Shown piece by piece: positions 1 to 49,189 of a DNA stretch of 49,189 bases. Under the pieces are notes generated by a model. That model did no database searches. It was not told the origin of the DNA and saw only the letters and a list, made by a program, of their open reading frames with translations. Source of the stretch: a virus (taxonomy: Duplodnaviria > Heunggongvirae > Uroviricota > Caudoviricetes); IMG/VR virus record IMGVR_UViG_3300045988_153230; one strand, 5' to 3'. The translations under genes and the position numbers were made by a program. Position 1 is the first letter of the stretch. Each line of letters begins with the position of its first letter.

Positions 1-45
1 TTCAGCCAGGTTAAAGCCTCATCGCATGAGGACACACGATACTCA

Positions 46-168
46 TCATCGTAGCTCAGGTCCGTAAACCTGTAGCTTTTTCAAATCAGCCAAAACCTTT
101 TCCTGAAGAGCGTCTTCTTGCTCATTTAGCCAGTCGTCAAATCGCTGGCTAAAAAGTACCGTCCACAT
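46..168 (-). pseudogene. Truncated RelE/ParE-family (Gp49/HigB-type) toxin remnant
   Basis: ATG at 168..166 opens a frame MWTVLFSQRFDDWLNEQEDALQEKVLADLKKLQVYGPE whose DNA at 55..109 is identical to 49135..49189 (5' part of the toxin gene at the right edge). After the junction at ~55 the frame stops at 48..46. Positions 1..55 are identical to 48278..48332 (inside the 126-aa gene) but out of frame and without a start. Confidence 0.55.
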
Positions 169-412
169 GTTCAATCCTATAACCTGTAGTTTATATCACT
201 AACTATATAACCTGTGAGTTATAATTTCAAGAAAAACGGGGCTATTTAACATAATGGACGTTATCGGCACCACCGGATCACCGTTCATTGTCGGATCTAA
301 AAAATCCGCTCAAAAGATCATGTTTTCCTGGGCGTTTTCCACCGTTTTTTATGTTGCTTATTTGTTAATGAAATCTCGTTTTCAGTTTCGCCTCATTTTC
401 GACGCGAAAGCC

Positions 413-703
413 CTATTTTTGTGACTTTACTCCTGGCATATGGACTTCCCAGCGACGAATCCCCATAGCTGCGCAAAAATCAGCCACATAATTCAATCCC
501 GCCCATTCGCGGATACCACCACGGGCTTTTTCAATGAAAACGGCAATCCCTTTTTTATTGAGAGCAAAAAGCCGCCAGCTTTTTGTCACTTCGTCCTGGG
601 TAGCCACAACACAAGTGAAAGCTCCCATGCGATACAGGTCCAAGAACTCTTTGCGTGTTTTGCGTACAAGTTCCATAACAAACCTCATATTTGCATGTTT
701 CAA
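413..703 (-). CDS. Hypothetical small protein (likely start at internal Met, ~91 aa)
   Basis: 96-codon ORF overlapping by 4 nt with the upstream ORF 700..999, suggesting a two-gene operon. No family recognised. Confidence 0.4.
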   Translation of the reverse strand: MKHANMRFVMELVRKTRKEFLDLYRMGAFTCVVATQDEVTKSWRLFALNKKGIAVFIEKARGGIREWAGLNYVADFCAAMGIRRWEVHMPGVKSQK

Positions 704-999
704 ACATCTGTTTTGTTATCAATGAAGATTAACCCTAACCCAGCGAAGTAACACAGCAGCGCCCAGGCTGCATACGGAATGCTGGATCTGGATGTGGACT
801 CCTTTAACATCTGCCAATTGCGAACATTGCGACTATCTTTTAAGCCAAGTTTTTTGGCCAACTGCGAGCCGCTCATTCCGGTCAGGCCAATGACTGCCCG
901 AACTTCTCCACATGTAGGAGACTCCCATTCATCCGCTTTTTTTAAACAAGCCGGATTCAACATTTTTAAAACAGTATCTTTATCCATAACCATCTCCAT
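700..999 (-). CDS. Small protein with predicted helix-turn-helix and hydrophobic C-terminus
   Basis: Segment LTGMSGSQLAKKLGLKDSRNVRNWQ resembles an XRE-type HTH; C-terminal stretch IPYAAWALLCYFAGLGLIFI is hydrophobic. Operonic with 413..703. Confidence 0.4.
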   Translation of the reverse strand: MEMVMDKDTVLKMLNPACLKKADEWESPTCGEVRAVIGLTGMSGSQLAKKLGLKDSRNVRNWQMLKESTSRSSIPYAAWALLCYFAGLGLIFIDNKTDV

Positions 1000-1379
1000 T
1001 TATTATATCTACGATGGTAGGAAATCTTTTCCTATGTGGCAATAGAAATTTACTACATTGCGTATAAGACAACTTTTCTATGTCTAATAGGAAATGATGT
1101 TTCTTACGTTTTATCGCGTTCTGATGGCTACTGTGTGCGTATTTATCGACGTTTATTGATAAGGCTCCCCCTTCCTCCTGCAAAGCCCGGCCGTAGGCCT
1201 TATTTCGTCCTTATATAAATTGATTTTGTATAGTTCGAAACGCGCCGTTTCGAAAAGGATGATCAGGCTACTCCATACCTCCGGCAAGTGCCGGAGGAGG
1301 TATATTTGAGCGTAGCGACTCGAACCGGCGCGAGCTTTAGCTCGCTGCAAGGGCGAACATATTCACAGGCAAAGCCTGC

Positions 1380-1630
1380 GTAAGTTAAATAAAGAAAGTT
1401 TTAATAAAAGAAAGTGATTTTGCATTTATTTGTTTAGTGCATCTATTATAAAAAACCATTTGCATATACATATCAAAACTGTGGATAACTTGATTAGTTG
1501 ATACCTGTAAAGGCGATATTTTTGCTGAGTTCAGGTTTAGAGAAAATTAATTTAGCTTGTTTTTTGAACAGCTATTTTTTTGCGACGTAGATAATCCTCC
1601 GGTAAAACCGGATTCATCATTCAGGTGAGT
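1380..1630. other. Putative plasmid origin (oriR-like) downstream of repA
   Basis: ~250 bp AT-rich non-coding stretch immediately 3' of repA with a consensus DnaA box (TGTGGATAA, complement TTATCCACA) at 1480..1488. IncFII-type replicons place ori just downstream of repA. Confidence 0.5.
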
Positions 1631-2478
1631 TAATGTTGGAGTGATTTCCAGGTCTTTCTTAGCCTGTTATAACGCTGCTCAACGAGGGATCGTAAATATG
1701 CAAGGTCAGCACCAGGATACATGCCATCAGCAAATTCCTGGCTAACCTCTCTAGTGATTTGATGACGAAGTTCGGCCTCTCCCTTTTCCTGAACAAGACG
1801 CGCAGCTCTCTCCGCTGCTTTCTGTTTTGCCTTTATCTCTCTGGCCGTCTTCCTCTGACGCCATACATTCTCCATCTGCTCCTGAATAACAATACGCTTA
1901 TAATCAGCCTCCGTTATCGCTTTTTTAAGCCGTTCACTATTCTTCGCATTGAAGTAATTAAGTTTCTGGCTAACCGCACGTCTCCATGCTTGTTCAGTAA
2001 TACCAACGGTTTCCAGCAGTTGATCACGAATCTCTATTTTCGCTGGCCAATACTGTTTATTCACCCGATCCCAGCGACGTTCATAATCAATAAAACCTAA
2101 CGCTTTCAGTTGCGACAACGCCCTTGTACAGCGCGTTATAGACTTGTTCCCAGCTTCGGATACGGTAGACAGGCCGCAAAAATCAGCCAACGCCTCAGCA
2201 CTAGCCAGAACCCGCTTAGAAATGATGTTTACATGGTGCAAAATCGCAGCGATCACAGCATTAATCGCCCGACGACGATGCTCGTTTATCCGGCGCTTCC
2301 GCTCTGACGGTTGATTAACGTAGAACGCAACCTCACACGTAAGATCACGCCCATTAATGCGCTGTAAAGCATCAGATAACACCAGCGGCAGCTTGTGCGT
2401 ATGGTGCTTTGGAGGCTGGAACTCCGGCGACAAATTACAAACGTAAGCTGAACGTAGAGACGGCATTGGTCTATCCAT
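1630..2478 (-). CDS. repA: Plasmid replication initiator, IncFII RepA1-like
   Basis: Conserved core ...RRRAINAVIAAILHHVNI...FCGLSTVSEAGNKSITRCTRALSQLKALGFIDYE... and basic C-terminal region match my recollection of R100/R1 RepA1. ATG at 2478 chosen (MDRPMPSLRSAYV...); the ORF track extends to 2607 with no better start. Confidence 0.75.
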   Translation of the reverse strand: MDRPMPSLRSAYVCNLSPEFQPPKHHTHKLPLVLSDALQRINGRDLTCEVAFYVNQPSERKRRINEHRRRAINAVIAAILHHVNIISKRVLASAEALADFCGLSTVSEAGNKSITRCTRALSQLKALGFIDYERRWDRVNKQYWPAKIEIRDQLLETVGITEQAWRRAVSQKLNYFNAKNSERLKKAITEADYKRIVIQEQMENVWRQRKTAREIKAKQKAAERAARLVQEKGEAELRHQITREVSQEFADGMYPGADLAYLRSLVEQRYNRLRKTWKSLQH

Positions 2479-2522
2479 ATGTTCGCTCTTGCGTCCACGG
2501 AAAACCAACGTATAATGGGAGT

Positions 2523-2598
2523 TGTCGAGGCGCCCATGGTTAGTTGTTGGTTTTCCGTGGATGTCGCAAGAAGCCCGCAGATTTATCTGCGGGCTTTT
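2523..2598 (+). ncRNA. Candidate CopA-like antisense RNA to the repA leader
   Basis: Plus-strand promoter-like TTGCGT-N16-TATAAT (2489..2516) followed ~55 nt later by a perfect hairpin plus T-run (GCCCGCAGATTTATCTGCGGGCTTTTT, 2571..2598), antisense to the region just upstream of the repA start. A 16-bp inverted repeat (2490..2505 / 2545..2560) sits in the same region. Confidence 0.4.
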
Positions 2599-2643
2599 TG
2601 TTTCCATATCTGGTCACTTTCCAACCAGACACCCACAATCATA

Positions 2644-2658
2644 ACCACGTTACGTGGT
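2644..2658. promoter_or_regulatory. Operator-like palindrome ACCACGTTACGTGGT upstream of repA
   Basis: Perfect 7-1-7 palindrome of the same ACCAC-N5-GTGGT type as the sites flanking the CI-like repressor gene. Confidence 0.4.
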
Positions 2659-2788: not shown

Positions 2789-3343
2789 TCAATGATTCCC
2801 AGCCGGAAACCTGCGGTAAAGCGTGGATAAGGTAACATCGAAGATAATCGCTATCCGCTTACGTGAAACACCATTCGCAATAAGCCTTCCGATCTGTTCC
2901 CATTGCTCTGGTGCCAGCTTTGAGCGACGTCCTCCTATCCTGCCGTTAGCCCTTGCCACCGCCAATCCTGCACGCGTTCTTTCAATCATATTTTCCCGCT
3001 CCATCTCTGCGACTGCACTCAGCATCGTGTAGGCAAAGCGGCCAATTGAAGTGCTGATTTTTATCCCTTCCGTAATTGAAATAAACTCAATGTCGTTTGA
3101 TAAAAAATGGTTAAGTAAATCAACAAGATGAATCAGAGAACGCCCCATTCGGTCCAGCTTCCAGACAATAACCGTATCGCCCGGTCGTAACACCTTCAGT
3201 AGCTTATCAAGTCCTGGTCGTTTTGATTTAGCACCGGATATTTTATCTTCAAAAATCCGGTCACATCCTGAACTCCTGAGCGCCTCCAGTTGTAATTCCA
3301 AATTCTGGTCAAAAGTTGACACCCTCGCATAACCATATTGCAT
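2789..3343 (-). CDS. Serine DNA invertase, Gin/Pin/Cin/Hin family
   Basis: 184 aa; N-terminal GYARVSTFDQ with catalytic Ser, and C-terminal ...GRIGGRRSKL...VTLSTLYRR HTH, closely resembling Mu Gin/e14 Pin as I recall them. Adjacent to an invertible tail-fibre segment. Confidence 0.9.
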   Translation of the reverse strand: MQYGYARVSTFDQNLELQLEALRSSGCDRIFEDKISGAKSKRPGLDKLLKVLRPGDTVIVWKLDRMGRSLIHLVDLLNHFLSNDIEFISITEGIKISTSIGRFAYTMLSAVAEMERENMIERTRAGLAVARANGRIGGRRSKLAPEQWEQIGRLIANGVSRKRIAIIFDVTLSTLYRRFPAGNH

Positions 3344-3407: not shown

Positions 3408-3433
3408 TTCGCAAAAACCTCGGTTTACAGGAA
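3408..3433. repeat. gix-like recombination site, left end of invertible segment
   Basis: Reverse complement reads TTCCTGTAAACCGAGGTTTTTGCGAA, matching my recollection of Mu gix (TTCCTGTAAACCGAGGTTTTGGATAA) over its first 20 nt. Inverted relative to the site at 6461..6486. Confidence 0.8.
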
Positions 3434-4420
3434 ACGGTAAACAGGGCTGGTAACGCCGTGCAAAAAAATGGCGATACCTTGTCCGGTGGGCTTACTTTTG
3501 AAAATGACTCAATCCTTGCCTGGATTCGAAATACTGACTGGGCGAAGATTGGATTTAAAAATGATGCTGATGGTGACACTGATTCATACATGTGGTTTGA
3601 AACAGGCGACAACGGCAATGAATATTTCAAATGGAGAAGCAAACAAAGCACCACAACAAAGGACCTGATGAATCTTAAATGGGATGCTTTGTATGTTCTT
3701 GTTAAAGCTCTTTTCAGCAGTGAAGTAAAAATATCGACAGTCAATGCACTGAGGATATTTAATTCATCTTTTGGTGCTATTTTTCGCCGTTCTGAAGAAT
3801 GCCTTCATATCATCCCTACCCGAGAAAATGAGGGGGAAAATGGCGATATAGGGCCACTACGCCCCTTTACGCTTAATCTCAGAACTGGTCGCATAACTAT
3901 GGGGCATGGTCTGGATGTTACAGGAGATATATTTACAAACCGTTTTTTAATTAACAGCAGTACAGGCATGTGGATTAATATGCGTGACCAGAACGTTATT
4001 ATGGGACGTAATGCGGTATCCACTGATGGTGCTCAGGCTTTGCTCCGTCAGGACCATGCCGACCGCAAATTTATGATTGGCGGTCTGGGAAATAAGCAAT
4101 TTGGCATCTACATGATTAATAACTCAAGGACAGCCAATGGTACCGATGGTCAGGCGTACATGGATAATAACGGTAACTGGCTTTGTGGTGCGCAAGTTAT
4201 TCCCGGCAATTATGGCAATTTTGACTCACGCTATGTGAGAGATGTCCGACTTGGCACACGTGTTGTTCAATTGATGGCGCGTGGAGGGCGTTATGAAATA
4301 GCCGGACACGCACTTACCGGATTAAGAATTATTGGTGAAGTTGATGGCGATGATGAAGCTATCTTTAGGCCGATACAAAAATACATCAATGGCACATGGT
4401 ATAACGTCGCACAGGTGTAA
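3408..4420 (+). CDS. Alternative tail-fibre C-terminal segment (Sv'-like), silent in this orientation
   Basis: Frame is open through the gix site and encodes LGLQETVN, the same peptide encoded at the gix site inside the tail-fibre gene (EYLGLQETVN). No own start; the ORF track's start at 3458 is GTG. Followed directly by a Tfa paralog. Confidence 0.7.
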
Positions 4421-4951
4421 ATGATGCAGCATTTAAAAAATATTAAGTCTGGAAATCCTAAAACGAAAGAACAATATCAGCTAACAAAGAATTTTGATGT
4501 TATCTGGTTATGGTCCGAAGACGGTAAAAACTGGTATGAGGAAGTAAATAACTTTCAGGACGACACCATAAAGATTGTATACGACGAAAATAATATTATT
4601 GTTGCCATAACCAAAGATGCCTCAACGCTTAATCCCGAAGGCTTTAGTGTCGTTGAGATTCCAGATATAACAGCCAATCGTCGTGCCGATGATTCAGGGA
4701 AGTGGATGTTTAAGGATGGATCTGTAGTTAAACGGATTTATACGGCAGACGAACAGCAACAACAAGCCGAATCACAAAAGGCCGCATTGCTTTCCGAAGC
4801 TGAATCAGTCATCCAGCCGCTGGAACGCGCTGTCAGGTTGAATATGGCAACAGACGAGGAACGCACACGACTGGAAGCATGGGAACGCTACAGTGTTCTG
4901 GTCAGCCGTGTGGATACGGCAAATCCTGAATGGCCACAAAAGCCTGAATAA
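4421..4951 (+). CDS. Tail fibre assembly protein (Tfa/U'-like), alternative copy
   Basis: 176 aa; N-terminus [25 protein letters not shown]... is paralogous to the convergent ORF 4980..5513. Typical position after a tail-fibre C-terminal segment. Confidence 0.85.
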
Positions 4952-4956
4952 AAATT

Positions 4957-4976
4957 AAGGCCCGCTATCGGGCCTT
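4957..4976. terminator. Bidirectional hairpin between convergent Tfa genes
   Basis: AAGGCCCGCTATCGGGCCTT perfect stem-loop between the two convergent Tfa ORFs. Confidence 0.5.
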
Positions 4977-4979
4977 GTC

Positions 4980-5513
4980 TCATTCCGGTTTTTCTGGAAA
5001 CGTTACTGGCAGGATGGAGGTATCTGTAGATTCGACTTTCTGTGCATATAGCATCCACTCGGTTAATTTCTGTTTATTCTCATCGGAAATGATGCCCAGC
5101 CGTAGCTGTGAGTCCCACAGTTGGGTTTTATCCCTGACAAGTTGCAACAGGCTTTGCTTTTCATTCTCTGCCTGCTGCCTCTGTTCTTCCTCGGTGTAAG
5201 TTCGCTTTATCACTACGCCATCTTTGAACATCCATTTACCCGAAATATCAGCCCGGCGATTTGCTGTAATATCAGGTAATTCAACGACGCTTGCGCCTTC
5301 CGGATTAATTGCTGAAACATCCTTTTCAATACAAATAATAACGCCGTTACGGTCATAGACCATTTTCAATGTGTCTGGCTGGAAATTCTTTTGTTCCTCA
5401 TACCAGTTTTTTCCATCATCTGAATAAAGCCATTTGATGTTAAATTGCTTTGTTAGCTGGTATTGCTCTTTTGTTTTAGGGTTGCCAGCAGTAATGTTTT
5501 TTAAGTGCATCAT
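4980..5513 (-). CDS. Tail fibre assembly protein (Tfa/U-like), expressed copy
   Basis: 177 aa; [24 protein letters not shown]...; immediately downstream of the tail-fibre gene. Confidence 0.85.
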   Translation of the reverse strand: MMHLKNITAGNPKTKEQYQLTKQFNIKWLYSDDGKNWYEEQKNFQPDTLKMVYDRNGVIICIEKDVSAINPEGASVVELPDITANRRADISGKWMFKDGVVIKRTYTEEEQRQQAENEKQSLLQLVRDKTQLWDSQLRLGIISDENKQKLTEWMLYAQKVESTDTSILPVTFPEKPE

Positions 5514-5515
5514 CG

Positions 5516-7834
5516 TTAAATACTCCCCGCGTTATACCACGTCCCATTAATGCAATACTGAATTGGCCTTGCCTGAGTTGTATCAATTAATTCATCACGG
5601 TTTCCGTTAACTGAACCCGTAACGACATAACCTGACCTGTCAGACCAGCCGGGACCATTCCATGTCTGAACAGATGACAGACCGCCCAGGCGAATACCTG
5701 TAATAAACCTTGAGTTACATTCTGCCTGCGTATATGCACCAACATCCCCCGCAGAGGGTTTGCGGGTTGTGGTGTAAAACTCTGACCAGTTAGCTTCAAA
5801 GCCATAACCATCACGCGCTGAACGATAAAAGATACCGCCGTTCTTATAATTCACGCGGAACTGTACAGCAGGGCAACTCCCCGCATTCATATTAAAGTGG
5901 AGGATTAATGTCGATGCACCACTGATATCTGCATCATAAACACCGCTATTCCAGTTCCAGCCAACAGCTTTATCATTTGCAACCCTGCTTCCTGTTTGCC
6001 CTAAAGCAAATGCAGGCTGCTGGTTTTTCGTATTGTAGTCTCTTCGCCAGCCAGGAGCATAAGCATCACCATGATTAATATAAGTGAATTGAGCGTTAGT
6101 GATTCCGCCGCCGCTGGACGTACTCGGAGTAGTAACGCGTATGGTCATTGCGCCGCGAGTGCCAATAACTTCCACCACAGCACCTGCAAGACAAATATTT
6201 CCGCAACCTGTATCTGTAATGACCTTATTATTTGCATAAGCCCATGAGCCTTTGCACATCCAGTAAGGATGGTTAAATGCTCCCTGACTCTCCAGCCACG
6301 AAATAAATTGCGCGGTTGTCCAGACCTGACTATCGCCACCAATATTCAGCCATGGGCTGTATGCGCGGCAGGCACCAATATTTTTGGTGAAGGTATCTTT
6401 TCCTGGAATATCTGCGCCGTTCTGGTTTTTCTGTAATGCGCCAGAAGCCTGATTTACCGTTTCCTGCAAACCGAGGTATTCGATAACGGCAGCAACGGTC
6501 GATTTCGCAAGAATATCCCGCCCGACTTTTGTCAGGGTTGCCAGGCTGGCGACATCATTCCCCGTAAAATACGGAAACTTGTCTGCCGAAGTAGCAAGCC
6601 CGGCCAGCGCCGTCAGGGTGGCATCTTTCGGTTGCTTACCCGCAAGCGCGTTAGTCATGGTGGTCGCAAAATTCGGGTCGTTGCCCAACGCCGCAGCCAG
6701 CTCGTTTAGCGTATTCAGTGCGTCAGGCGACGAGTCCACGAGGGCAGCGATCGCAGCCATAACATAAGCCGTGCTTGCGATCTGAGTATTGTTAGTACCT
6801 TTTGGCGCAGTTGGTGTTGTTGGTGTTCCGGTCAGCGCAGGACTGTTTAAGGGCGCTTTCTTGTTCGTTTCATCCATTACCGCCTTAACAGCTTTTGGTG
6901 TCGCAGCCAGCGTTTCAGACGTGCTGTTAGTGGCACTACTGAGCTGAGTTATTCCCCTTACAGTCAGTGAAGCTACAGGCACATTTGTTATCTGCTCCCA
7001 CGAATGCGTGTGATTGGACGGAGCCTTTCCGGCCGCAAGATCATACGCTGCCTTAACAGCCTTTGGTGTTGCTGCTAGCGTTTCAGACGTGCTGTTGGTG
7101 GCACTACTGAGCTGAACAATCCCTTTTCGCGCTGTGGTAGCGTCCTGTGCGGTGTATTTAGCGTTAGCAAGGTCATATGCTGCCTTAACAGCCTTAGGCG
7201 TCGCAGCAAGCGTTTCAGACGCGCTATTGGTGGCGCTGCTAAGTTGAACAAAGCCTTTTGAGGTTAAAGTTGCATCAGGATGATTACGTGATTGCTCATG
7301 TTTCACAATGGCTTGCTTAAGCCGCTTTGCTGAAACAGCAAGGGAATCATCTGTACCTGCCTCAATTTCTTGTTCATTAGCAAATCTTGCCACCCCAACA
7401 ACAGTTTCGGTCGCGGGAGGATTAATAAACTCAATATCACCAAATGTAATATTTTTAGTATCAAGAGTCTTAATTGCTATATCACTTGATATTAAAGCGA
7501 TAGTAGATGATGCTTTATTTATTATTGCTTGTTCTTGTGAGTATACAGCAAACAACGCCCCCTTATTCGTATACAATCCTATTGTATGGACAACATACTC
7601 ATCTTTACTATCATCCTTCGCTGTTACATGAATTGTATCAGGGGAAACAACTTTGCCACCTATTGTGGTAAGTCGTTTTATTTCGTTTGTTATATTTGTT
7701 TGTGAGGTTGACGTGACATAATATCTACTACCTAAACCAACAGAAACAATCTCAACTTTATTTGTTCCTGTTTTGTTGGCATTAACCAACTCCTGACGCC
7801 CGGCGTCAGTCATCGTAAATAATAATTTACTCAC
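5516..7834 (-). CDS. Tail fibre protein (P2 gpH / Mu S-like), constant N-terminal part plus invertible C-terminal part
   Basis: 772 aa; N-terminus MSKLLFTMTDAGRQEL resembles P2 gpH N-terminus (first codon is GTG). Contains three ~70-bp internal repeats (about 6885..7250) and the gix site at 6461..6486 inside the coding sequence. Confidence 0.85.
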   Translation of the reverse strand: MSKLLFTMTDAGRQELVNANKTGTNKVEIVSVGLGSRYYVTSTSQTNITNEIKRLTTIGGKVVSPDTIHVTAKDDSKDEYVVHTIGLYTNKGALFAVYSQEQAIINKASSTIALISSDIAIKTLDTKNITFGDIEFINPPATETVVGVARFANEQEIEAGTDDSLAVSAKRLKQAIVKHEQSRNHPDATLTSKGFVQLSSATNSASETLAATPKAVKAAYDLANAKYTAQDATTARKGIVQLSSATNSTSETLAATPKAVKAAYDLAAGKAPSNHTHSWEQITNVPVASLTVRGITQLSSATNSTSETLAATPKAVKAVMDETNKKAPLNSPALTGTPTTPTAPKGTNNTQIASTAYVMAAIAALVDSSPDALNTLNELAAALGNDPNFATTMTNALAGKQPKDATLTALAGLATSADKFPYFTGNDVASLATLTKVGRDILAKSTVAAVIEYLGLQETVNQASGALQKNQNGADIPGKDTFTKNIGACRAYSPWLNIGGDSQVWTTAQFISWLESQGAFNHPYWMCKGSWAYANNKVITDTGCGNICLAGAVVEVIGTRGAMTIRVTTPSTSSGGGITNAQFTYINHGDAYAPGWRRDYNTKNQQPAFALGQTGSRVANDKAVGWNWNSGVYDADISGASTLILHFNMNAGSCPAVQFRVNYKNGGIFYRSARDGYGFEANWSEFYTTTRKPSAGDVGAYTQAECNSRFITGIRLGGLSSVQTWNGPGWSDRSGYVVTGSVNGNRDELIDTTQARPIQYCINGTWYNAGSI
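6461..6486. repeat. gix-like recombination site inside tail-fibre gene, right end of invertible segment
   Basis: TTCCTGCAAACCGAGGTATTCGATAA, near-identical core to the site at 3408..3433 in inverted orientation. Confidence 0.8.
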
Positions 7835-7864
7835 GCTTAATTCCTTGAATTAACAAATTGCGAA

Positions 7865-41033: not shown

Positions 41034-41690
41034 ATGAAAAGCAACGACGAGAACATCAAGAAAGAAATAGGTCTGCGCATTCAGACTCTACGGAAACAAT
41101 CCGGCATGACTGCCGGAGATCTCCAGCAAGTCACTGGAATAGGCTTAAGCACCTTGCAGAACTATGAGGCCGGATTAAGACAACCATCTATACCTGCCAT
41201 CAAGAAAATTGCGCACGCCCTGAAAGCATCAGCGCCTTATATCGCGTGCTTAACAGATAACCCGTTCCCACCCCAGAATACTAACGCTCCTGTTATTCCT
41301 GGGCTTGTAGCTATAAAAAATGACATAGCATCGCACGCCGGAGAAAAGCCAGTGCTGGCGATAGAACAGGAGATTCTACGAAGCAAGAACATCAACCCAT
41401 CGTCTCTGTCAGTTCTCCAGAGCAACGATGAGTTAATGTCACCAACAATATCCCCAGGCTCCCAAGTCCTGATTGATACAGACGATACAGAGATTCATGA
41501 GGGGATCTATGCCCTTGAAGACAGAAATGGCCTGGTTGTTTTGAGGCACTGTAGAGTCATACCGGGTGACAATGCTGTTATGCTGTCAACCGAAAGGGAT
41601 GCTGAAATGAACACTAAGCATCTGAATAACGAGGAATTTAAGCGTTATAAAGTTCTTGGCCGCGTAGTTAGTGTTGTCAACTGGTTATGA
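41034..41690 (+). CDS. CI-like repressor, HTH plus S24 (LexA-like) peptidase domain
   Basis: 218 aa; N-terminal HTH (...IGLRIQTLRKQSGMTAGDLQQVTGIGLSTLQNYEAG...), C-terminal S24-like (...MSPTISPGSQVLID...FKRYKVLGRVV...). Followed by a hairpin (GCACGGCGAAAGCCGTGC). Confidence 0.8.
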   Translation: MKSNDENIKKEIGLRIQTLRKQSGMTAGDLQQVTGIGLSTLQNYEAGLRQPSIPAIKKIAHALKASAPYIACLTDNPFPPQNTNAPVIPGLVAIKNDIASHAGEKPVLAIEQEILRSKNINPSSLSVLQSNDELMSPTISPGSQVLIDTDDTEIHEGIYALEDRNGLVVLRHCRVIPGDNAVMLSTERDAEMNTKHLNNEEFKRYKVLGRVVSVVNWL

Positions 41691-42157: not shown

Positions 42158-42195
42158 CTGCAAGCGGGCTAACGCCCGCTTATATGATTATAGAT

Positions 42196-42284
42196 TTATA
42201 TAATTATATAAAACGCTTTTCATCCGCCAAAAAGTTGGTTATGCTTACCTCGTTCTATAAATATAGATTTATAGAATTATATAA
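42196..42284. repeat. AT-rich palindromic repeats upstream of parA (candidate centromere/operator)
   Basis: Perfect 16-bp palindrome TTATATAATTATATAA (42196..42211) and variant TTATAGAATTATATAA (42269..42284), plus ATAGATTTATA direct repeats; a further copy sits between parA and the RHH gene (42962..42974). Confidence 0.5.
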
Positions 42285-42307: not shown

Positions 42308-42961
42308 ATGACTATCTCTGTAGGTATTTTCAACGGAAAAGGCGGCGTAACCAAATCAACAATTGCCCGTGCTTTAGCAGTTGCTTATGCAAAGGCTGGC
42401 TGGAATGTATGCCTGATCGATATGGATGTGCTTAACGGAACGGTAACGCGTTGGGTACAACGCAGAATGGCCAACAATATCGAACCAGCAATCGCGGCGC
42501 AGCCGTGCGGCACACCATCACAAGTCCAGAAAATCATCGAATCAGAAATATACGACCTGGTTATCGTCGATGGCGGTGCCTACGCATCTGAATCAGTACC
42601 GAAGCTCTCTGAATTTCTGGATATGGTTATTTTGCCAACCAGATTCTCTACCGATGACCTGGAAACCACCGTTAACACAGCTCACGGCATCGTTAAAAAG
42701 GGTGTACCAATCAAGAAAATTTGCATGGTGTTTTCCGGCGCGGCTGAAAACGAAGCTGACTATATTGAAGCCCAAGAGTACCTGGCTAATACGCCATACT
42801 TTGTTGTCGATAAGTACATTCCCCACAAGCCAGCTCTGAGCAAAGCTCAGGATAAGGGCTTAAGCCTCATTGAGTGCTCATACGTTGCGCCACGCAAAAA
42901 GGCAGACGACGTTATTCAGGGGATTATCAACCAGCTTGAGGCTCTGACTACTGCCGCGTAA
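42308..42961 (+). CDS. parA: ParA-family partition ATPase (type Ib, ParF-like)
   Basis: ~217 aa from ATG at 42308 (GGAG RBS): MTISVGIFNGKGGVTKSTIA... deviant Walker A near the N-terminus. Confidence 0.8.
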   Translation: MTISVGIFNGKGGVTKSTIARALAVAYAKAGWNVCLIDMDVLNGTVTRWVQRRMANNIEPAIAAQPCGTPSQVQKIIESEIYDLVIVDGGAYASESVPKLSEFLDMVILPTRFSTDDLETTVNTAHGIVKKGVPIKKICMVFSGAAENEADYIEAQEYLANTPYFVVDKYIPHKPALSKAQDKGLSLIECSYVAPRKKADDVIQGIINQLEALTTAA

Positions 42962-43004
42962 TATATAATTATAGTTTTATAGATTTATATAAGAGGGGAT
43001 ACAC

Positions 43005-43253
43005 ATGGCCGCACCATCAAAACCACCAAAGAAGAACAGCAAAGGCGTACCGCCATCGATCGAACAACCGCAGGTTTTCGACCCGACTGAAACGCCAACC
43101 AGAACCAAATCAGGTGGGGCACAAATGGCGTTTAACGTCGACCCTGAATTTAAACGCGAGTACAAAACGTTCGCCAGCTCAATGGATATGTCATTGAAAG
43201 AAGTGCTGACAAAATCTTTTGAGTTACTCAAGGCTCAATACAACCAGAAGTAA
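43005..43253 (+). CDS. Ribbon-helix-helix centromere-binding protein (ParG-like)
   Basis: 82 aa; Pro/Lys-rich flexible N-terminal tail and C-terminal ...MAFNVDPEFKREYKTFASSMDMSLKEVLTKSFELLKAQ... with RHH-like beta-alpha-alpha pattern; directly downstream of parA. Confidence 0.65.
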   Translation: MAAPSKPPKKNSKGVPPSIEQPQVFDPTETPTRTKSGGAQMAFNVDPEFKREYKTFASSMDMSLKEVLTKSFELLKAQYNQK

Positions 43254-43503
43254 GAGAAGGTGACGGCCTCCAGCGCCAACTGTTGGCCGTCGCGACACAA
43301 CAAGGGGAATTTGTTATGTCCGAGCAACAATATACACGGTTACTAAAAACTCGTCTAATAGACCTCAAACGGCTGCAAGCTGGTCGCTTATTTGCCCTGC
43401 TATCCACCAGGCCAGAATGGGTACGTGAAGCAGTTCTGAAAGGCTTAATGCGCTCAAGCGTTTAAATTCAACCATAAAAAAGGCCCCCGAAGGGGCCTAA
43501 TCG

Positions 43504-43626
43504 CTACTTGCTGCTAATGTTTATCGTCACATTCAGAGCGTTATCAGTAATCTTCCAACCCTCCCCATGTGGCGTAAACAAAGCTCCAGTAACAACGATA
43601 AAAATACACATGTAGTATTTTTTCAT
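43504..43626 (-). CDS. Small hydrophobic protein (40 aa), candidate type I toxin-like peptide
   Basis: ATG at 43626: MKKYYMCIFIVVTGALFTPHGEGWKITDNALNVTINISSK; a bidirectional hairpin (GGCCCCTTCGGGGGCC, ~43478..43500) follows on the minus strand. Confidence 0.4.
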   Translation of the reverse strand: MKKYYMCIFIVVTGALFTPHGEGWKITDNALNVTINISSK

Positions 43627-43940
43627 TGTGTGGCCCTTACAGGCCGTTTCACGGCATCCCCACCGACGAAAATGACGCGAGAGCAAGCACGCTGTTTGTG
43701 CCTGCGTGGTACGGCAAGTGGATAATCCTTTCCTGAAAGTCAGTGCCCGGGTGCGAATCGGCGGAAAGGCCCCAAGCCATATTACACGTCATACCCTTCA
43801 TAATGAAGGAATAAAAAACGCTTTTATTACATAAGATTACACGTAAATAAGTTAAAAACCTTCATTTTGCATGAGCTAATGAGCTAAATTTTTTTATATG
43901 AATAGTGGACTATTCACCTCAGTTGGGTAAGAATGTAGTT

Positions 43941-44597: not shown

Positions 44598-45046
44598 TTT
44601 TTATCCCCATACTGAATTTTTTCTTGTTCCCGACTTTAACAAAATTCCACAACTCAGGACTGATTGATTCCCTACAGGAACTATACATTCCCATTTTTAG
44701 CATATCAAGAAAATTAAAAGCCCCGCATTCAAACCCACACTATGTGGTTTAGTCTGTTAAAATCCCTCTGTATTGACATAAATGCGCCATTGGTGGACAC
44801 TTTCCGAGCCGTAGCAAAATCTACGGTCGGGATTGGAACCCCGATAATCATCATGGCGCATACCGCGTTAGCGGTTTTTTTATGCGTAAAGCACTGCTAC
44901 ACCCAAATTATGGTGGGGCGTGCGGGGGAGTCGTAAGACTCGCCGGATTCCATGGTGACCGGTAGTTCCAACCCTGTACGTCTCACCACCCAATGATTGG
45001 AACCAGACGGTGGTGAGTATCCTTAACCTTTAAGGGAACTATCACC

Positions 45047-45238
45047 ATGACAAACTTACCCCATGACTATTACGTCAACCTCGTAAAGATCCTTCTCAAG
45101 AAAGCCTCATACGCCGATAAATTCCGCCTGGCTGAAATCATCGAGCGCGAAGCTATGCGCATCGCCAGCAACGATAACGCTGTTTCTGACGCAAAAATCT
45201 CCCTCGTAACCAAAGTAGTTATGGGAGGTGCAAAATGA
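45047..45238 (+). CDS. Hypothetical small protein upstream of antirepressor
   Basis: 63 aa, ATGA overlap with the downstream gene. Confidence 0.45.
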   Translation: MTNLPHDYYVNLVKILLKKASYADKFRLAEIIEREAMRIASNDNAVSDAKISLVTKVVMGGAK

Positions 45239-46416
45239 AAACGCTTCCGACCGTTAACACCCTACAGCCTATCCTGCATAACCAAATCCCCGTTATCACT
45301 ACTGAACTACTGGCAAAGCTATACGGCACAGACGTTGATAACATCAAAAAAAATTACTCACGTAACGCAAACCGCTTTATTGAAGGAAAGCATTTTTTCA
45401 AAGTGGCTGGCGATGAGTTAAAAACTTTGCGAGTGACTTTAAGTCACTCACAAAATTTGCGACTGGTTTTAAACGAGTCACAAAATGAGGTGCAAATTTC
45501 CCCCAAAACTCGCTCTCTCATCCTCTGGACAGAACGCGGGGCTGCACGTCACGCCAAAATGCTTGAAACTAACCAAGCGTGGGATGTGTTCGAACGGCTG
45601 GAAGACTGCTACTTCAACCAGAACGCGCAAACGGCCGCGACCGTTACCGTCTCGCCAAACAATGCTCGTGAGGTTGTCGATACGCTCAACGCCAAACCGA
45701 TGTTTTACATTAAAGTGTGCAACAACGAGCCACTCACAACCTCAGCCGATGTTGCCCAGGCATTCAGCACCACAAACAATTCCATCGTTATGGCCATCGA
45801 TGCGCTACGCATTCCTCGCACGGCTGCGGCGCGTCACTTCTTTAAAGAGCAACGACCGCTGGAAGGAAGCGACCGCGAAATAACAATCTATCGCATGACA
45901 AAAGACGGATTTACCTTACTCATGGAGAGCATCGACGGTCCAAGCGTGAAAGATATCAAGCTGGCCTACATTGAAGCCTTTAACGCTATCAGCAGCGTGT
46001 TAAAAACACAGTACGAGCGTGATCTGGCTAAACGACTGTACCAGGAAAAAACGATTATCCGCGCGGCAACAGAGCATAATCGGCTATTAACGGAACCGAA
46101 CTACAGGAAGGAACTAATCAAGGAGTTTGACAAGGCAACAGGGAAAACCAAAGCGGCGCTAAATCTGCCAGCAATGACTCAGGAAAATGTGATATCAGCC
46201 TTACTTCTTGATCTGCTCAGAAACGCCAGAGCACTGATCAGCTTTGACGAAAACCTGAATCCTCAGCTCAAGCTACTACCACCGACAGGCAAAGTAGTCG
46301 ACCAGGCAGATCACAACAGCATACTCAGCGTACTGGATGCAAACCTACCAGCCAGGACACTACAGGAACTGATAAAGATATCGGCGGATAAACTGGCCGC
46401 AGGTGCAAAACCATAA
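45235..46416 (+). CDS. Antirepressor-like protein (ORF6N and Rha-like domains)
   Basis: 393 aa; N-terminal ...PVITTELLAKLYGTDVDNIKKNYSRNANRFIEGKHFFKVAGDELKTL... (ORF6N-like) and central ...NAKPMFYIKVCNNEPLTTSADVAQAFSTTNNSIVMAIDAL... (Rha/antirepressor-like). Confidence 0.65.
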   Translation: MKTLPTVNTLQPILHNQIPVITTELLAKLYGTDVDNIKKNYSRNANRFIEGKHFFKVAGDELKTLRVTLSHSQNLRLVLNESQNEVQISPKTRSLILWTERGAARHAKMLETNQAWDVFERLEDCYFNQNAQTAATVTVSPNNAREVVDTLNAKPMFYIKVCNNEPLTTSADVAQAFSTTNNSIVMAIDALRIPRTAAARHFFKEQRPLEGSDREITIYRMTKDGFTLLMESIDGPSVKDIKLAYIEAFNAISSVLKTQYERDLAKRLYQEKTIIRAATEHNRLLTEPNYRKELIKEFDKATGKTKAALNLPAMTQENVISALLLDLLRNARALISFDENLNPQLKLLPPTGKVVDQADHNSILSVLDANLPARTLQELIKISADKLAAGAKP

Positions 46417-47994: not shown

Positions 47995-48020
47995 AGCATC
48001 CTCCTCGCACAATATTAACA

Positions 48021-48047
48021 CTCGCAAAGTGTCAAAATGACACTTTG
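48021..48047. promoter_or_regulatory. Perfect 12-bp inverted repeat (operator-like) upstream of the HTH regulator gene
   Basis: CGCAAAGTGTCA-AAA-TGACACTTTGCG, ~25 nt upstream of the ATG at 47994. Confidence 0.45.
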
Positions 48048-48057
48048 CGTATTGTGT

Positions 48058-48438
48058 TTACTTAACGAGGAATAAAAATGGTTTATTGTTCGGCGGTGTA
48101 ATCGGGGCTGGCTCGCTTTTGCTCATGCGATCAGTGTACCAGGCCAACTCCTTGTCAAAGTAAGCCTGATTAAAATAGGCCATGAATGTAGTTTCAAATC
48201 CATAACGACCGCTAATACGCAGCATCTGATTGCCGTTCTCTGTTTCCAGATATACCTGGGCACGTTCCTGATTCTCCTTCAGCCAGGTTAAAGCCTCATC
48301 GCATGAGGACACACGATACTCATCATCGTAGCAGTCATCGATGCGGCTTGAGGAAGAACGGCAAATCACGCCAACAGAACCAGCCAGGATAGTTTGAATT
48401 TTAAGGAAAGCGTTTTTGCGGATTTTAATCATGCTCAT
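48058..48438 (-). CDS. Hypothetical protein (126 aa), first gene after cassette copy 3
   Basis: ATG at 48438 with the cassette-supplied RBS; its middle part (48278..48332) is duplicated at window positions 1..55. Confidence 0.55.
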   Translation of the reverse strand: MSMIKIRKNAFLKIQTILAGSVGVICRSSSSRIDDCYDDEYRVSSCDEALTWLKENQERAQVYLETENGNQMLRISGRYGFETTFMAYFNQAYFDKELAWYTDRMSKSEPAPITPPNNKPFLFLVK

Positions 48439-48555
48439 CGGGTTATCTCCGGTTTAACCAGGACGGGTATCGCTCGGTTTCGGGTATAACCTTAGGAAAT
48501 TTTTTCCCACCTGTAAAGCACTTTTTATATAAATATATAATTATATAATTCTATG
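48439..48555 (-). promoter_or_regulatory. Conserved ~115 bp promoter/leader cassette, copy 3
   Basis: Near-identical to copies 1 and 2, including TATATAATTATATAATT palindrome and RBS/start context. Confidence 0.6.
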
Positions 48556-48601
48556 AGCACAAAAAAGCCCCTTTGCAACAGGGGCTTATCATTCGTTCTG
48601 A

Positions 48602-48901
48602 TCAGATGTTAAACGCTATTCGTTTTCCTGTGGGAAGCTCAACATCCAGGCTTAATTTGCCTCCCATAGCTTCAACGTAACGCTTTAATGTCGCCAGCTT
48701 TAAATCATTTCCGCGCTGCTCCAGCTTTGTTACTGCTGGCTGGCTTATACCCATCGCCTCAGCAACCTGTTTTTGTGATAACTGGAGTTCTTCACGCATC
48801 ATCTGCAAGCCGACCTCAAGAATCATCTCATCTGCCATTTCTTTAATTCGCGCCTGGCTTTCCGGTGAACGGCTGGCAATCGCCTCATCTAATGTTCTCA
48901 T
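48602..48901 (-). CDS. HigA-like antitoxin (XRE-family HTH)
   Basis: 99 aa; ...LQLSQKQVAEAMGISQPAVTKLEQRGNDLKLATLKRYVEAMGG...; ATG overlaps the stop of the upstream toxin gene by 1 nt (toxin-first order as in higBA). Confidence 0.7.
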   Translation of the reverse strand: MRTLDEAIASRSPESQARIKEMADEMILEVGLQMMREELQLSQKQVAEAMGISQPAVTKLEQRGNDLKLATLKRYVEAMGGKLSLDVELPTGKRIAFNI

Positions 48902-49189
48902 TACTTGCTCTCCAGTGTGTTCAGATGTGCTGCAAACTCATCCTCAGCTATACGCACCAGTTTTTCATAAAACCGCTTATCGTTACTTTTGTCTCCTGCA
49001 CAAAGAACGATGGCCCGGCGAATCGGATCGAACGCATAAAAGGCTCTTATCGGACGGCCAGAAAACTGAACGCGAAGCTCTTTCATATTTTTGTACCGAG
49101 AACCTTTTACGGTATCGGCATATGGCCTGGGTAACTCAGGTCCGTAAACCTGTAGCTTTTTCAAATCAGCCAAAACCTTTTCCTGAAGA
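48901..49189 (-). CDS. RelE/ParE-superfamily toxin, Gp49/HigB-like; 5' end cut by window edge
   Basis: ...GPELPRPYADTVKGSRYKNMKELRVQFSGRPIRAFYAFDPIRRAIVLCAGDKSNDKRFY... matches the Gp49-like addiction-module killer pattern. The true start lies beyond 49189; the homologous left-end copy suggests the N-terminus MWTVLFSQRFDDWLNEQEDALQEKVL... Confidence 0.75.
   Translation of the reverse strand, partial: LQEKVLADLKKLQVYGPELPRPYADTVKGSRYKNMKELRVQFSGRPIRAFYAFDPIRRAIVLCAGDKSNDKRFYEKLVRIAEDEFAAHLNTLESK

Follow-up and report, generated by a model that had tools for sequence, protein, structure and literature searches.

Is a stretch of viral DNA that carries both a plasmid replicon and a full complement of phage genes a phage that lives as a plasmid, a plasmid of phage descent, or a prophage detached from its chromosomal context? 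The question was raised by a contig of 49,189 nucleotides (the window), which an earlier note based on sequence alone had proposed as a candidate phage-plasmid. Almost all of the elements that the note listed were found at or close to the positions it had assigned. The proposal itself was upheld by the circularity of the contig, the plasmid records of its relatives, and the intact repA, partition and virion genes. Very probably, the window contains in full the genome of a temperate myovirus whose lysogenic form is a circular, low-copy, non-mobilizable plasmid, one of a widespread enterobacterial family of ~47-50 kb.

Genome topology

The contig closes from position 49189 to position 110 to produce a circle of 49,080 bp, as given by the spacing of the direct repeat. 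The last 55 nt of the contig (49135-49189) are identical to positions 55..109, and the Gp49 toxin ORF that is cut at the window end is made whole, at 115 aa, by circular closure. The restoration of this ORF across the junction and the terminal 55-nt identity thus indicate that the closure is correct, and the topology check suggested in the earlier note returned a circular contig. Positions 1..54 are an exact copy of 48278-48331 joined to 55-109; this segment lies outside the circle and represents either a junction in the assembly graph or a minority variant with an 803-bp deletion. The earlier note had named two observations that would speak against a phage-plasmid, namely a chromosomal flank with an att duplication and fragmentary repA or par genes. 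Neither flank nor att duplication was found within the 49-kb contig, the ends of which overlap and complete the toxin gene. The repA and parA products gave full-length profile matches, the ribbon-helix-helix (RHH) partner is full-length relative to its PHROG family, and all three genes are retained in dozens of independent circular records.

Virion, lysis and DNA inversion genes

A complete set of lambda-type head, P2-type tail and lysis genes was detected on the circle with Pfam, which confirmed both halves of the head-tail mosaic noted earlier. The contractile tail and baseplate genes (5516..17695, minus strand) specify the fibre, I, J, W, GpU, V, D, X, tape measure, chaperones, tube and sheath, as named from profile matches and the PGAP names in relative L001; the Pfam families recognized were FII tube, GpU, GPD, V, gp25, J and I. 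The head and packaging genes (17696..25673, minus strand) encode connectors, capsid E, a decoration-like protein, ClpP protease, portal, a DUF6148 protein, the large terminase gpA and the small terminase. Pfam identified the GpA terminase, lambda-family portal, ClpP protease and capsid E among these, and the small terminase matched phrog_57 (7.4e-42). The lysis cassette (32644..34174, minus strand) consists of two holins, a GH108 endolysin with a PG_binding_3 domain and a 92-aa downstream ORF; the full structural, packaging and lysis gene set that had been reported is therefore present. Three ParB_N-domain proteins, one of which is fused to a methyltransferase, are encoded with accessory ORFs and an MT-A70 methyltransferase at 25664..31966 (minus strand), where the 26812-27531 product matches a PHROG family labelled minor tail protein. 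A tRNA-Met (CAT) gene is located at 32275..32350 on the same strand.

Pfam scanning of 85 ORFs revealed no Phage_integrase match and no large serine recombinase, in agreement with the reported absence of tyrosine and large serine recombinases. The sole recombinase among these ORFs is a Hin/Cin-type small serine DNA invertase of 184 aa (2789..3343, minus strand; Resolvase 5e-43, HTH_7 1.7e-12). The segment at 3414..6480 is bounded by 55-nt inverted repeats, contains alternative fibre C-termini and assembly chaperones, matches Caudo_TAP twice, and shows 93.5% DNA identity to the P7 C segment. Inversion of this segment by the invertase may serve to switch host range. In comparison with phage vB_YpM_44 no gene diverges more than that of the tail fibre, which still retains the invertible segment.

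Relatives and alternative interpretations

The structural block was found at ≥95% identity in 72 of 5,426 complete E. coli genomes (about 1 in 75), including ATCC 25922. All but one of the 96 E. coli places of this block were on plasmid records (95/96), with a single chromosomal instance (1/96), and the places with ≥80% coverage of the block were without exception on records of 31-94 kb (58/58, again including ATCC 25922). PLSDB contained 32 records with ≥80% of the first 25 kb. The repA-origin segment was present in 62 records, each of them non-mobilizable (62/62), and among these the replicon at the DNA level was confined to this phage-plasmid family. For Yersinia phages vB_YpM_39/41/44 (OR545053-55), identity was 98-99% across 88-92% of the structural half; that relatives are phages is taken from GenBank record names and host fields. 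Every one of the 23 packaging, head and tail proteins of vB_YpM_44 has an orthologue here with 100% coverage and 98.5-100% identity, and the toxins of the two are 100% identical. The ~48.5-kb plasmid of E. coli ATCC 25922/Seattle 1946 (e.g., NZ_CP117232, NZ_CP101926) is the same element. This plasmid and the three Yersinia phages have gene order, replicon, par, toxin-antitoxin and immunity genes in common with the window, but differ in the tail-fibre C-terminus (67% identical), the antirepressor (86%) and several accessory genes within 29.6-31 kb and 34.3-36.3 kb; pESBL3215 possesses an extra IS200/IS605 element relative to the window. Near-identical copies are already public, so the element is a typical representative of a known kind rather than a new one. 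No published description of the family was found in the literature searched. The abundance of the family in public databases could not have been known to a reader of the sequence alone.

The same records could be read, with low probability, as a cryptic plasmid of phage descent that replicates and segregates but has lost the capacity to complete a lytic cycle, the deposited phage records being prophage predictions or rare escapes. Two related phage records, vB_EcoM-613R2 and 473R2, derive from a study that located phages in the genomes of clinical isolates and not from plaques, genome announcements describe relatives simply as plasmids, Pfam and PHROG recognized no lytic replication module, and certain relatives bear IS insertions in terminase or structural genes (NZ_CP173475; NZ_JBRERL010000006). 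However, all of the virion, packaging and lysis ORFs are intact with full-length profile matches, and the virion and packaging ORFs are strongly conserved with those of vB_YpM_44, the record of which names Y. pestis EV76-CN as propagation host. A highly divergent tail fibre with an invertible segment is also what is expected of an element that still infects. Integration as a prophage, with integrase and att sites just outside the window, is extremely improbable: apart from the one chromosomal match among 96 in E. coli, nothing was found in support. Against it stand the overlapping contig ends, which complete a gene, the lack of a flanking chromosomal gene and of an integrase in any ORF, and the relatives of equal length and gene order, which are recorded as closed circular plasmids. 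A chimera of a small plasmid (repA, par and toxin-antitoxin genes) with an unrelated prophage is likewise extremely improbable: the misjoined first 54 nt reveal that the assembly graph is not perfectly clean, but the same interleaved plasmid and phage gene order recurs in >50 independently assembled closed records and three phage records, and the replicon is confined to this family.

Replication and its proposed copy number control

The repA gene of the proposed phage-plasmid (1630..2607, minus strand) specifies an initiator of the IncFII superfamily (PF02387 IncFII_repA, E 6.9e-43; NCBIfam NF040977 RepA_IncFII_LM, 232 bits against a cutoff of 70). The earlier assignment as IncFII-type overreached, in that it holds at the level of the superfamily but the protein is not canonical IncFII, its score with model TIGR03474 (79 bits) being far below the cutoff of 447. 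The Pfam match begins at residue 52, which makes the start at 2478 chosen in the earlier note plausible; this ATG is probably the functional start. RepA in relatives is annotated at 277 aa.

A DnaA-box origin had been placed in the 1380..2478 region, and the box is indeed downstream of repA. The candidate origin (1380..1600, minus strand) includes conserved TTTGCAT-type repeats and the sole perfect DnaA box of the window, TTATCCACA (1480-1488, minus strand), which is 142 nt past the repA stop codon and adjoins a 79% A+T stretch. Taken together, DnaA-like 9-mers show no enrichment, with 15 counted against 13.5 expected. In relatives that are ~75% identical the origin block is conserved and the box reads TTATTCACA. 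RepA would fire this origin ~140 nt downstream of its own gene.

Opposite the repA leader is a candidate CopA-like countertranscript (2489..2604, plus strand). Its promoter, TTGCGT-N16-TATAAT (2489-2515), precedes an RNA of ~84 nt (2521-2604) that folds into a pair of hairpins, of which the second is a terminator (folding energy -39.2 kcal/mol, z -6.6). Promoter, stems and terminator are invariant among relatives and loop I is variable; compensatory changes were not seen among the relatives because the stems are invariant. The antisense RNA may set copy number as CopA does in R1. R1/R100 (IncFII/IncL-M) resemble the window in the PF02387 and RepA_IncFII_LM assignment of RepA, in a DnaA-box origin just downstream of repA, in a short, highly structured countertranscript opposite the repA leader, and in a repressor operator within that leader at the site taken by CopB/PrepA in R1. 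In contrast, the window lacks copB, the antisense RNA has no match in an Rfam CopA search, and the operator matches those of the phage CI.

A single Xer/dif-like core site, GGTGCCGATAA-CGTCCA-TTATGTTAAAT, was located at 244..271 (minus strand; 1 match, 0.00 expected). The site and its position are common to relatives L001-L005 with invariant arms, and host XerCD could resolve multimers at this candidate site. Pfam and PHROG profile searches recognized no dedicated lytic replication genes, and the statement that lambda O/P-type genes are lacking agrees with the absence of matches in the scanned ORFs.

Immunity and a proposed connection to replication

The CI-type repressor (41034..41690, plus strand) contains an HTH_3 domain (1.1e-10) and an S24-like C-terminal domain. 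The Peptidase_S24 match (E 0.0062) is below the Pfam cutoff; Ala102-Gly103, the serine in MSP and the lysine in KVLGRV were found by reading the sequence. The immunity switch region (40876..40996) contains ACCAC-N5-GTGGT at 40879-40893 and 40982-40996, and an imperfect copy at 40900-40914. Another perfect operator, ACCACGTTACGTGGT, is in the repA leader (2644..2658). Across the whole window eight CI-type operators were counted (four perfect) compared with 0.66 expected. Among Citrobacter, Salmonella and metagenomic relatives the operators keep their arms and differ in their centres; in the repA leader the arms are kept and the centre is changed in Citrobacter and Salmonella. A TTGACT-16-TATGAT site is situated ~100 nt upstream of the repA-leader operator, although the promoter that the operator would control is uncertain.

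The immI-like module of P1/P7 type (44808..46416, plus strand) comprises an isrK-like RNA (RF01394, 70.2 bits), the C4 antisense RNA (44906-44993, plus strand; RF01695, 84.3 bits), orf63 and an antirepressor with ORF6N and pRha domains (Pfam). CI is predicted to bind ACCAC-N5-GTGGT at the switch, in the repA leader and downstream of cI, and also, with one mismatch, upstream of the C4 RNA-antirepressor operon. Given operators at both the switch and the repA leader, RecA-stimulated cleavage of CI or the action of the antirepressor would release early genes and repA together.

The early leftward operon (38890..40859, minus strand) encodes a DUF1064 protein, the RecA-dependent nuclease Ref and three unknown ORFs. 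A 125-aa sigma-region-4/Q21-like protein (38509..38886, minus strand) is a candidate late regulator. Its description as a Q-like antiterminator overreached, being supported only by resemblance at the level of the fold, with no functional match in Pfam or PHROG. The DUF3560 protein (37272..38339, minus strand) partially matches a PHROG family labelled primase.

Partition and stability functions

Both genes of the partition pair recorded earlier at 42308..43253 are present. The small Walker-type ParA of 217 aa (42308..42961, plus strand) is type Ib-like, matches Pfam CbiA, ParA and MipZ, scores 78 bits with NF041546 (cutoff 180), and is weakly matched to ParF (4dzz). The 82-aa ParG-like protein (43005-43253, plus strand) has no Pfam match of its own, and its RHH class derives from remote homologues, 35 of 78 of which match RHH families including ParG. 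Two 4 x 8-bp arrays of TTATAKAW upstream of parA (42181..42283) are a candidate centromere and operator, and a third 4 x 8-bp array separates parA from the RHH gene (42962-42991, plus strand). In total 30 TTATAKAW matches were found against 0.01 expected, and array positions are kept in L003-L006. The eight dispersed arrays are centred on the par genes, although five of them are distant from par and precede phage early genes and a tRNA. A 120-nt repeat with an array, TTTACA-N17-TAAGGT, leader, SD and ATG occurs at 31263..31383 (minus strand), with further copies at 38335-38455 and 48435-48555. The RHH protein may bind the arrays around parA and, with ParA, segregate plasmid copies; alternatively, the arrays could be bound by a MarR-like winged-helix regulator (36916..37194, minus strand; phrog_1687, 5e-31), the gene of which is itself preceded by an array.

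Type Ib systems (TP228 ParF-ParG-parH and pB171 par2) resemble the window in three respects: ParA measures ~217 aa and lacks an N-terminal DNA-binding domain, the ~80-aa partner combines a basic, disordered tail with a C-terminal RHH, and short repeats with 8-bp periodicity form arrays at the par promoter. The link to ParG is transitive and weak (1p94, E 0.13). TP228 has tetramer boxes with 4-bp spacers at the par promoter. The window differs from type Ib systems in its TTATAKAW unit and in the five further arrays.

The Gp49(HigB)/HigA pair at 48602..49189 (minus strand) was confirmed as an HTH antitoxin (48602-48901; HTH_3 4e-16) and the 3′ 289 nt of a Gp49/HigB-type toxin gene (Gp49 2.9e-21), the first 59 nt of which are at 110..168 across the junction. 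A ryfA-family RNA (43476..43774, minus strand; RF00126, 134.6 bits against a gathering score of 80) contains a 40-codon hydrophobic ORF and is a candidate type I toxin module. Plasmid-free segregants would be killed by the Gp49/HTH pair and perhaps also by this ryfA-type module. The first reading of the sequence had overlooked the ryfA RNA, dif-like site, C4 module, CopA-like RNA, repA-leader operator and 8-bp arrays.

Comparison with P1 and N15

P1/P7 resemble the window as circular plasmid prophages without an integrase and with an addiction module. The resemblance extends to a C4 antisense RNA upstream of the antirepressor operon (immI), to a Cin-type invertase that accompanies an invertible C segment of the tail fibre, and to scattered repressor operators that include one at a replication gene. 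P1, at 94 kb, has head and tail types of its own, an iteron-type RepA and type Ia ParAB/parS; its multimers are resolved by Cre-lox, its lytic replicon (RepL) is separate, and its C1 repressor is not related to CI. In the window, by contrast, RepA is of the IncFII superfamily and is accompanied by a candidate antisense RNA, the small ParA is paired with an RHH protein, an Xer site is present, the repressor is CI-type (HTH_3/S24-like), and RepL is lacking. N15 has a lambda-type head like the window, but is linear with protelomerase and telomeres, a siphovirus tail, primase-helicase-type RepA and type Ia SopAB; Pfam profile searches found these N15-specific features, including protelomerase and SopAB, to be absent from the window. 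N15 further resembles the organization proposed for the window in that its prophage repressor CB has operators at repA, such that one replicon serves both states, and in having centromere sites scattered through the genome between phage genes.

Circular topology and extrachromosomal state

The 3′-terminal 55 nt of the window are identical to positions 55-109, and the spacing between these copies therefore gives a unit length of 49,080 bp. Joining of position 49189 to position 110 restored a 115-aa Gp49/HigB-type toxin ORF that otherwise is cut by the window end, and the toxin of vB_YpM_44, one of three closely related Yersinia phage records, has 100% identity to the restored ORF. The first 54 nt of the window are misplaced: they reproduce 48278-48331 exactly and are joined to the 55-nt terminal overlap, and thus the contig start is a junction, 48331|49135. 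This junction would remove 803 bp that include the antitoxin gene, most of the toxin gene and the 5′ end of the neighboring ORF, leaving an out-of-frame toxin stub. GTAGC/GTAAC microhomology is present at the joint. The 54-nt misjoin looks like either a k=55 assembly-graph bubble or a minority variant in the sample with a deleted toxin-antitoxin locus; no 803-bp deletion was found among the database relatives.

The structural block (7300-26300) was present at an identity of at least 95% in 72 of 5,426 complete E. coli genomes (~1.3%). Plasmid records accounted for 95 of the 96 E. coli places at which the block was located and the remaining one was chromosomal; a chromosomal E. coli match was not found among the matches listed in a second listing. 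All 58 E. coli places that covered at least 80% of the query were on records of 31-94 kb, mostly 47-50 kb. The extrachromosomal topology anticipated in the earlier note is supported by the terminal overlap that closes the circle, by the plasmid location of nearly all E. coli places and by the absence of an integrase gene: when 85 non-overlapping ORFs were translated and scanned against Pfam, neither an integrase nor a large serine recombinase was matched. The sole recombinase is a 184-aa protein with Resolvase and HTH_7 domains (2789-3343, minus strand) which adjoins a segment of 3 kb with inverted repeats of 55 nt at its ends. This segment and the invertible C segment of P7 share 93.5% identity, and the protein therefore was assigned as a tail-fiber invertase and not as an integrase.

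Virion and lysis genes

The structural half of the genome is encoded on the minus strand. The head and packaging genes are of lambda type, with Pfam matches to GpA_ATPase (7e-76), GpA_nuclease (1e-84), a lambda-family portal (9e-100), a ClpP-type protease (2e-31) and Phage_cap_E (2e-54), and the small terminase matched phrog_57 (7e-42). The tail genes are of P2 type, matching tube FII (1e-42), Baseplate_J (4e-54), GpU, GPD, the V spike, gp25/W and Tail_P2_I. A tape measure and a fiber with two Caudo_TAP chaperones also are encoded in the tail block, whereas the sheath is named only in the PGAP annotation of relatives. Two holins and a GH108 endolysin constitute the lysis genes. The Pfam and PHROG matches, which extend from the terminase subunits through the endolysin, bear out both the complete structural, packaging and lysis set and the mosaic of lambda-like head and P2-like tail in a single co-directional block that had been read from the sequence. 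In-frame tandem repeats occur in the tail fiber gene (6867-7259, minus strand; three 93-nt units with Phage_fiber_2 repeats) and in the tape-measure gene (12617-12901, minus strand; three 45-nt matches at a spacing of 120 nt).

Taken with a plasmid-type initiator, partition genes and a circular topology without integrase or att sites, this gene set argues, at the level of sequence, for the interpretation of the element as a phage-plasmid. The assignment of a late regulator fared less well. The 125-aa protein (38509-38886, minus strand) that was considered to be a Q-like antiterminator produced no Pfam match even at E≤10 and its PHROG match is to a family of unknown function. As PDB, Pfam and PHROG yielded no function from sequence, membership of the Q family was not upheld, and any resemblance to Q21 would be at the level of the fold.

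The replicon and a candidate countertranscript

The match of RepA (1630-2607, minus strand) to Pfam IncFII_repA (6.9e-43) spans positions 2-272 of the 275-position profile, and NCBIfam NF040977 (RepA_IncFII_LM) was matched with 232 bits against a cutoff of 70. However, the score with the canonical IncFII equivalog TIGR03474 was 78.8 bits, below the cutoff of 446.9. Thus, the designation of repA as IncFII-type holds for the superfamily, but not for canonical IncFII, and on these profile comparisons the replicon is its own type within the IncFII superfamily. The repA-ori segment was found in 62 PLSDB records, each of which is typed as non-mobilizable. As all 62 belong to this phage-plasmid family, the replicon is private to it.

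The candidate origin shortly downstream of repA includes the single perfect DnaA box in the window (1480-1488), located 142 nt past the repA stop codon and beside a stretch of 79% A+T. Relatives with ~75% identity possess a TTATTCACA box at the same place, inside the best-conserved intergenic block. DnaA boxes as a class were not enriched; what carries weight is the one perfect box, at its particular location.

A candidate countertranscript lies opposite the repA leader on the plus strand (2489-2604): a promoter, TTGCGT-N16-TATAAT (2489-2515), precedes an RNA of ~84 nt (2521-2604) with a predicted fold of two hairpins, the second of which is a terminator (-39.2 kcal/mol; z -6.6). The promoter scan showed no enrichment over shuffled sequences, and promoter assignments therefore are by eye only. 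Among relatives from Citrobacter and Salmonella, loop I is rewritten, with no variation in the promoter, either stem or the terminator; countertranscripts that determine incompatibility, such as CopA, show this pattern. A search for the Rfam family CopA gave no match at E≤5 within 900-3500, where only sub-threshold matches to Thr_leader and CsrC were returned, reflecting the hairpin and terminator, and thus no Rfam family accounts for the RNA. As CopA was not matched and the invariant stems provide no covariation, the RNA retains candidate status.

Putative repressor operators and the repA leader

The gene at 41034-41690 was interpreted as encoding a CI-like repressor. This assignment is supported by an HTH_3 match (1e-10), but the Peptidase_S24 match (E 0.0062) scored 16.7 bits and fell below the cutoff of 23.3. 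Inspection of the sequence gave a candidate Ala102-Gly103 pair, together with the serine of ELMSP and the lysine of YKVLGRV, as a possible cleavage site and Ser/Lys dyad of an autocleaving repressor of LexA/CI type. This HTH_3 protein with an S24-like C-terminus is the only repressor that was recognized.

Palindromes of the form ACCAC-N5-GTGGT occur eight times at no more than one mismatch, compared to 0.66 expected. Four copies are perfect: two in the switch region between cI and the early genes (40879-40996), one separating cI from the gene that follows it (41733-41747) and one in the repA leader (2644-2658). A copy with one mismatch (44734-44748) precedes the C4/antirepressor operon. The repA-leader, switch-region and 41733 copies of relatives retain their arms and differ in the central five bases, the repA copy included. 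Conservation of arms with variation of centers argues for selection on a site for a dimeric repressor. The palindromes are viewed as a putative CI regulon that would include the plasmid replication gene.

Repressor-replication pairs are established in R1 (CopB/PrepA), N15 (CB/repA) and P1 (C1/repL), and the proposed control of repA by CI is analogous to these. On the basis of the conserved motifs, CI would repress repA in the lysogen and loss of CI would de-repress replication together with the early genes. The IncFII-like RepA and origin also would be throttled in lysogeny by the CopA-like antisense RNA, and loss of CI, acting via the repA-leader operator, would turn the same origin to lytic amplification. 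Such coupling would explain the absence of a recognizable separate lytic replicon. In line with the earlier note, the ORF scan matched no lambda O/P-type replication protein, and the only other replication candidates are a DUF3560 protein (a partial match, in a PHROG "primase" family), a DUF1064 protein and a Ref nuclease.

Partition genes and 8-bp arrays

ParA (42308-42961) is a 217-aa Walker ATPase that matched P-loop ATPase families in Pfam over the whole protein and that weakly matched ParF (4dzz). The assignment as a ParA was thereby corroborated, and both the small length and the lack of an N-terminal HTH agree with type Ib. The adjacent gene (43005-43253) encodes an 82-aa protein for which a disordered basic tail is predicted, and after it a short extended stretch and two helices. 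When 1.8 billion representative proteins were searched with a profile, this recovered 102 homologues of similar size, 77 of which were aligned with the query, and all 78 sequences were scanned against Pfam. The families matched were RHH_10 (20 sequences), Antitox_RHH (9), 56B_RHH (3) and ParG (2), and in the PDB the profile was matched best by the RHH proteins 56B and ParG (E~0.1). Although the homologues match RHH families, the partner itself has no direct family match, and its earlier description as an RHH protein is likely to be correct with support that is transitive.

Eight arrays of ~30 nt, each a run of four 8-bp TTATAKAW units, were detected; the three-unit pattern had 30 matches compared to 0.01 expected, and TTATATAA is self-complementary. 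Three arrays (42181, 42254 and 42962; overall 42181-42991) lie around parA and reach the Shine-Dalgarno sequence in front of the RHH gene. These three conserved 4 × 8-bp arrays correspond to the iterated repeats at the par promoter that characterize type Ib loci, and are a candidate centromere. The five distal arrays (31354, 32490, 37209, 38426 and 48526) precede early genes and a tRNA. In diverged relatives, the par-proximal positions and three of the five distal positions are preserved, the latter before the genes for a MarR-like protein, the DUF3560 protein and a 126-aa ORF.

Three distal arrays are directly 5′ of copies of a 120-nt repeat (31263-31382, 38335-38454 and 48435-48554, minus strand) that are 92-98% identical. 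Read on the minus strand, the repeat comprises the array, TTTACA-N17-TAAGGT, a leader of ~55 nt, a Shine-Dalgarno sequence and ATG, and it precedes three unrelated genes. A structured RNA was considered and rejected: there was no Rfam match, the predicted fold is modest, and only one of three copies folded better than shuffled sequences.

By analogy with ParG and omega, the arrays were assigned as the putative centromere and regulon of the RHH protein. The MarR-like protein is a rival candidate for array binding, as its own gene also is preceded by an array. If the RHH protein is the binder, it also would regulate three identical early promoters, the MarR-like gene and the tRNA through the eight arrays. 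In combination, these proposals would give a single replicon under CI and antisense control that serves both lifestyles, with the RHH protein as centromere binder and global regulator, a compact circular counterpart of N15 logic that is assembled from other components. This composite scheme is advanced tentatively and the balance lies against it.

Maintenance and antirepressor modules

The Gp49(HigB)/HigA pair named in the earlier note was verified by matches to Gp49 (2.9e-21) and HTH_3 (4e-16), with the toxin gene upstream and stop and start codons overlapping at 48901; the toxin ORF is completed by circular closure. Beside the toxin gene is a Xer/dif-like core site, GGTGCCGATAA-CGTCCA-TTATGTTAAAT (244-271, minus strand), for which no occurrence is expected by chance. 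It is in the same place in five relatives, where the arms are invariant and there is one central change. Just downstream of the par genes, a ryfA-family RNA (43476-43774, minus strand; 134.6 bits, gathering threshold 80) contains a 40-codon hydrophobic ORF (MKKYYMCIFIVVTGALF...) and possibly is a type I toxin-antitoxin module. These three elements would round off the functions for plasmid maintenance.

An immI-type module occupies 44808-46416 on the plus strand and is composed of an isrK-like RNA (70 bits, gathering threshold 50), a C4 antisense RNA (RF01695; 84.3 bits, gathering threshold 45), a 63-codon ORF and an antirepressor gene. The stop codon of orf63 overlaps the start of ant by ATGA, and Ant possesses ORF6N and pRha domains. 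The sequence GATTGGAACC at 44831 and 44995 is complementary to C4 positions 44965-44975. Thus, the P1/P7 immI layout is combined here with a lambdoid-type CI.

Relatives and comparison with known phage-plasmids

Coverage of the first 25 kb of the window reached 80% or more in 32 PLSDB records. The plasmid pESBL3215 is a closed circle of 49,148 bp with the same gene order, and ATCC 25922 (Seattle 1946), a quality-control strain, carries a 48,488-bp plasmid of the family. Salmonella, Citrobacter, Klebsiella, E. fergusonii, E. albertii and E. marmotae also are carriers, and diverged relatives in Citrobacter, Salmonella and Klebsiella aerogenes share the layout. The Yersinia phage records vB_YpM_39, vB_YpM_41 and vB_YpM_44, for which the GenBank host field is Y. 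pestis EV76-CN, are 98-99% identical to the window over 88-92% of the structural half. All 23 packaging, head and tail proteins of vB_YpM_44 have orthologues in the window at 100% coverage and 98.5-100% identity. Divergence from this phage is concentrated in the tail fiber (67%), fiber chaperone (85%), antirepressor (86%) and a few accessory genes, a pattern that would be expected if the element remains infectious. A genome-mining study is the source of two E. coli "phage" records that belong to the family.

The element resembles P1 and P7 in being a circular plasmid prophage with a C4-antirepressor module, an invertible fiber segment and scattered repressor sites, and N15 in the proposed repressor-repA link and dispersed putative centromeres. 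Its components are different: the RepA is of the IncFII superfamily, the ParA is type Ib-like and is paired with an RHH protein, and there are a Xer site, a CI-type repressor, a lambda-type head and a P2-type tail. The family was not among the named types (P1, N15, SSU5-related and AB) in the phage-plasmid typing literature searched. Searches with phage names, accessions and ATCC 25922 and of phage-plasmid survey supplements located no description of it, and no paper on the vB_YpM phages was found in the literature searched. Two apparent relatives were rejected: pSLy3 is an SSU5-type element of a different kind, and HQ103, a plasmid-like Yersinia phage of 32 kb, is an unrelated peduovirus.

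Public databases already contain abundant, near-identical sequences of the family, deposited as plasmids and as phages alike. The window is another member without further new biology, and the coupling of CI to replication, deduced from conserved motifs, is the sole part of possible wider interest. Phage-plasmids increasingly are recognized as elements that move genes by infection and persist like plasmids. This family routinely is annotated as a cryptic plasmid; its recognition as a phage-plasmid improves the annotation of plasmids and prophages, and bears on the interpretation of phage-host or control strains. The family also provides a small, tractable model of an element whose plasmid copy control, partition and phage immunity appear to have regulators in common.

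Accessory genes and variants among relatives

Beside the terminase genes (25664-29544 and 31379-31966, minus strand) are genes for three proteins with a ParB_N domain, one of them a fusion with a SAM methyltransferase domain, and for an MT-A70 methyltransferase; these probably are orphan DNA methyltransferases or anti-restriction functions. PADLOC detected no complete defense system, returning only methyltransferase-like matches and a weak HTH domain match (PDLC02926).

Insertion sequences were noted in several relatives. The plasmid pESBL3215 harbors IS200/IS605 with TnpB as cargo (47378-49067 of that record), and NZ_CP173475.1 and NZ_JBRERL010000006.1 have IS1203/IS3 in or beside terminase and structural genes. 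Thus, decay to plain plasmids may be in progress in part of the family. At 94,204 bp, the ATCC 25922 plasmid record NZ_CP032086.1 is about double the size of the 48,488-bp records from the same strain; it includes two copies of the element and probably is either a dimer assembly or a real multimer.
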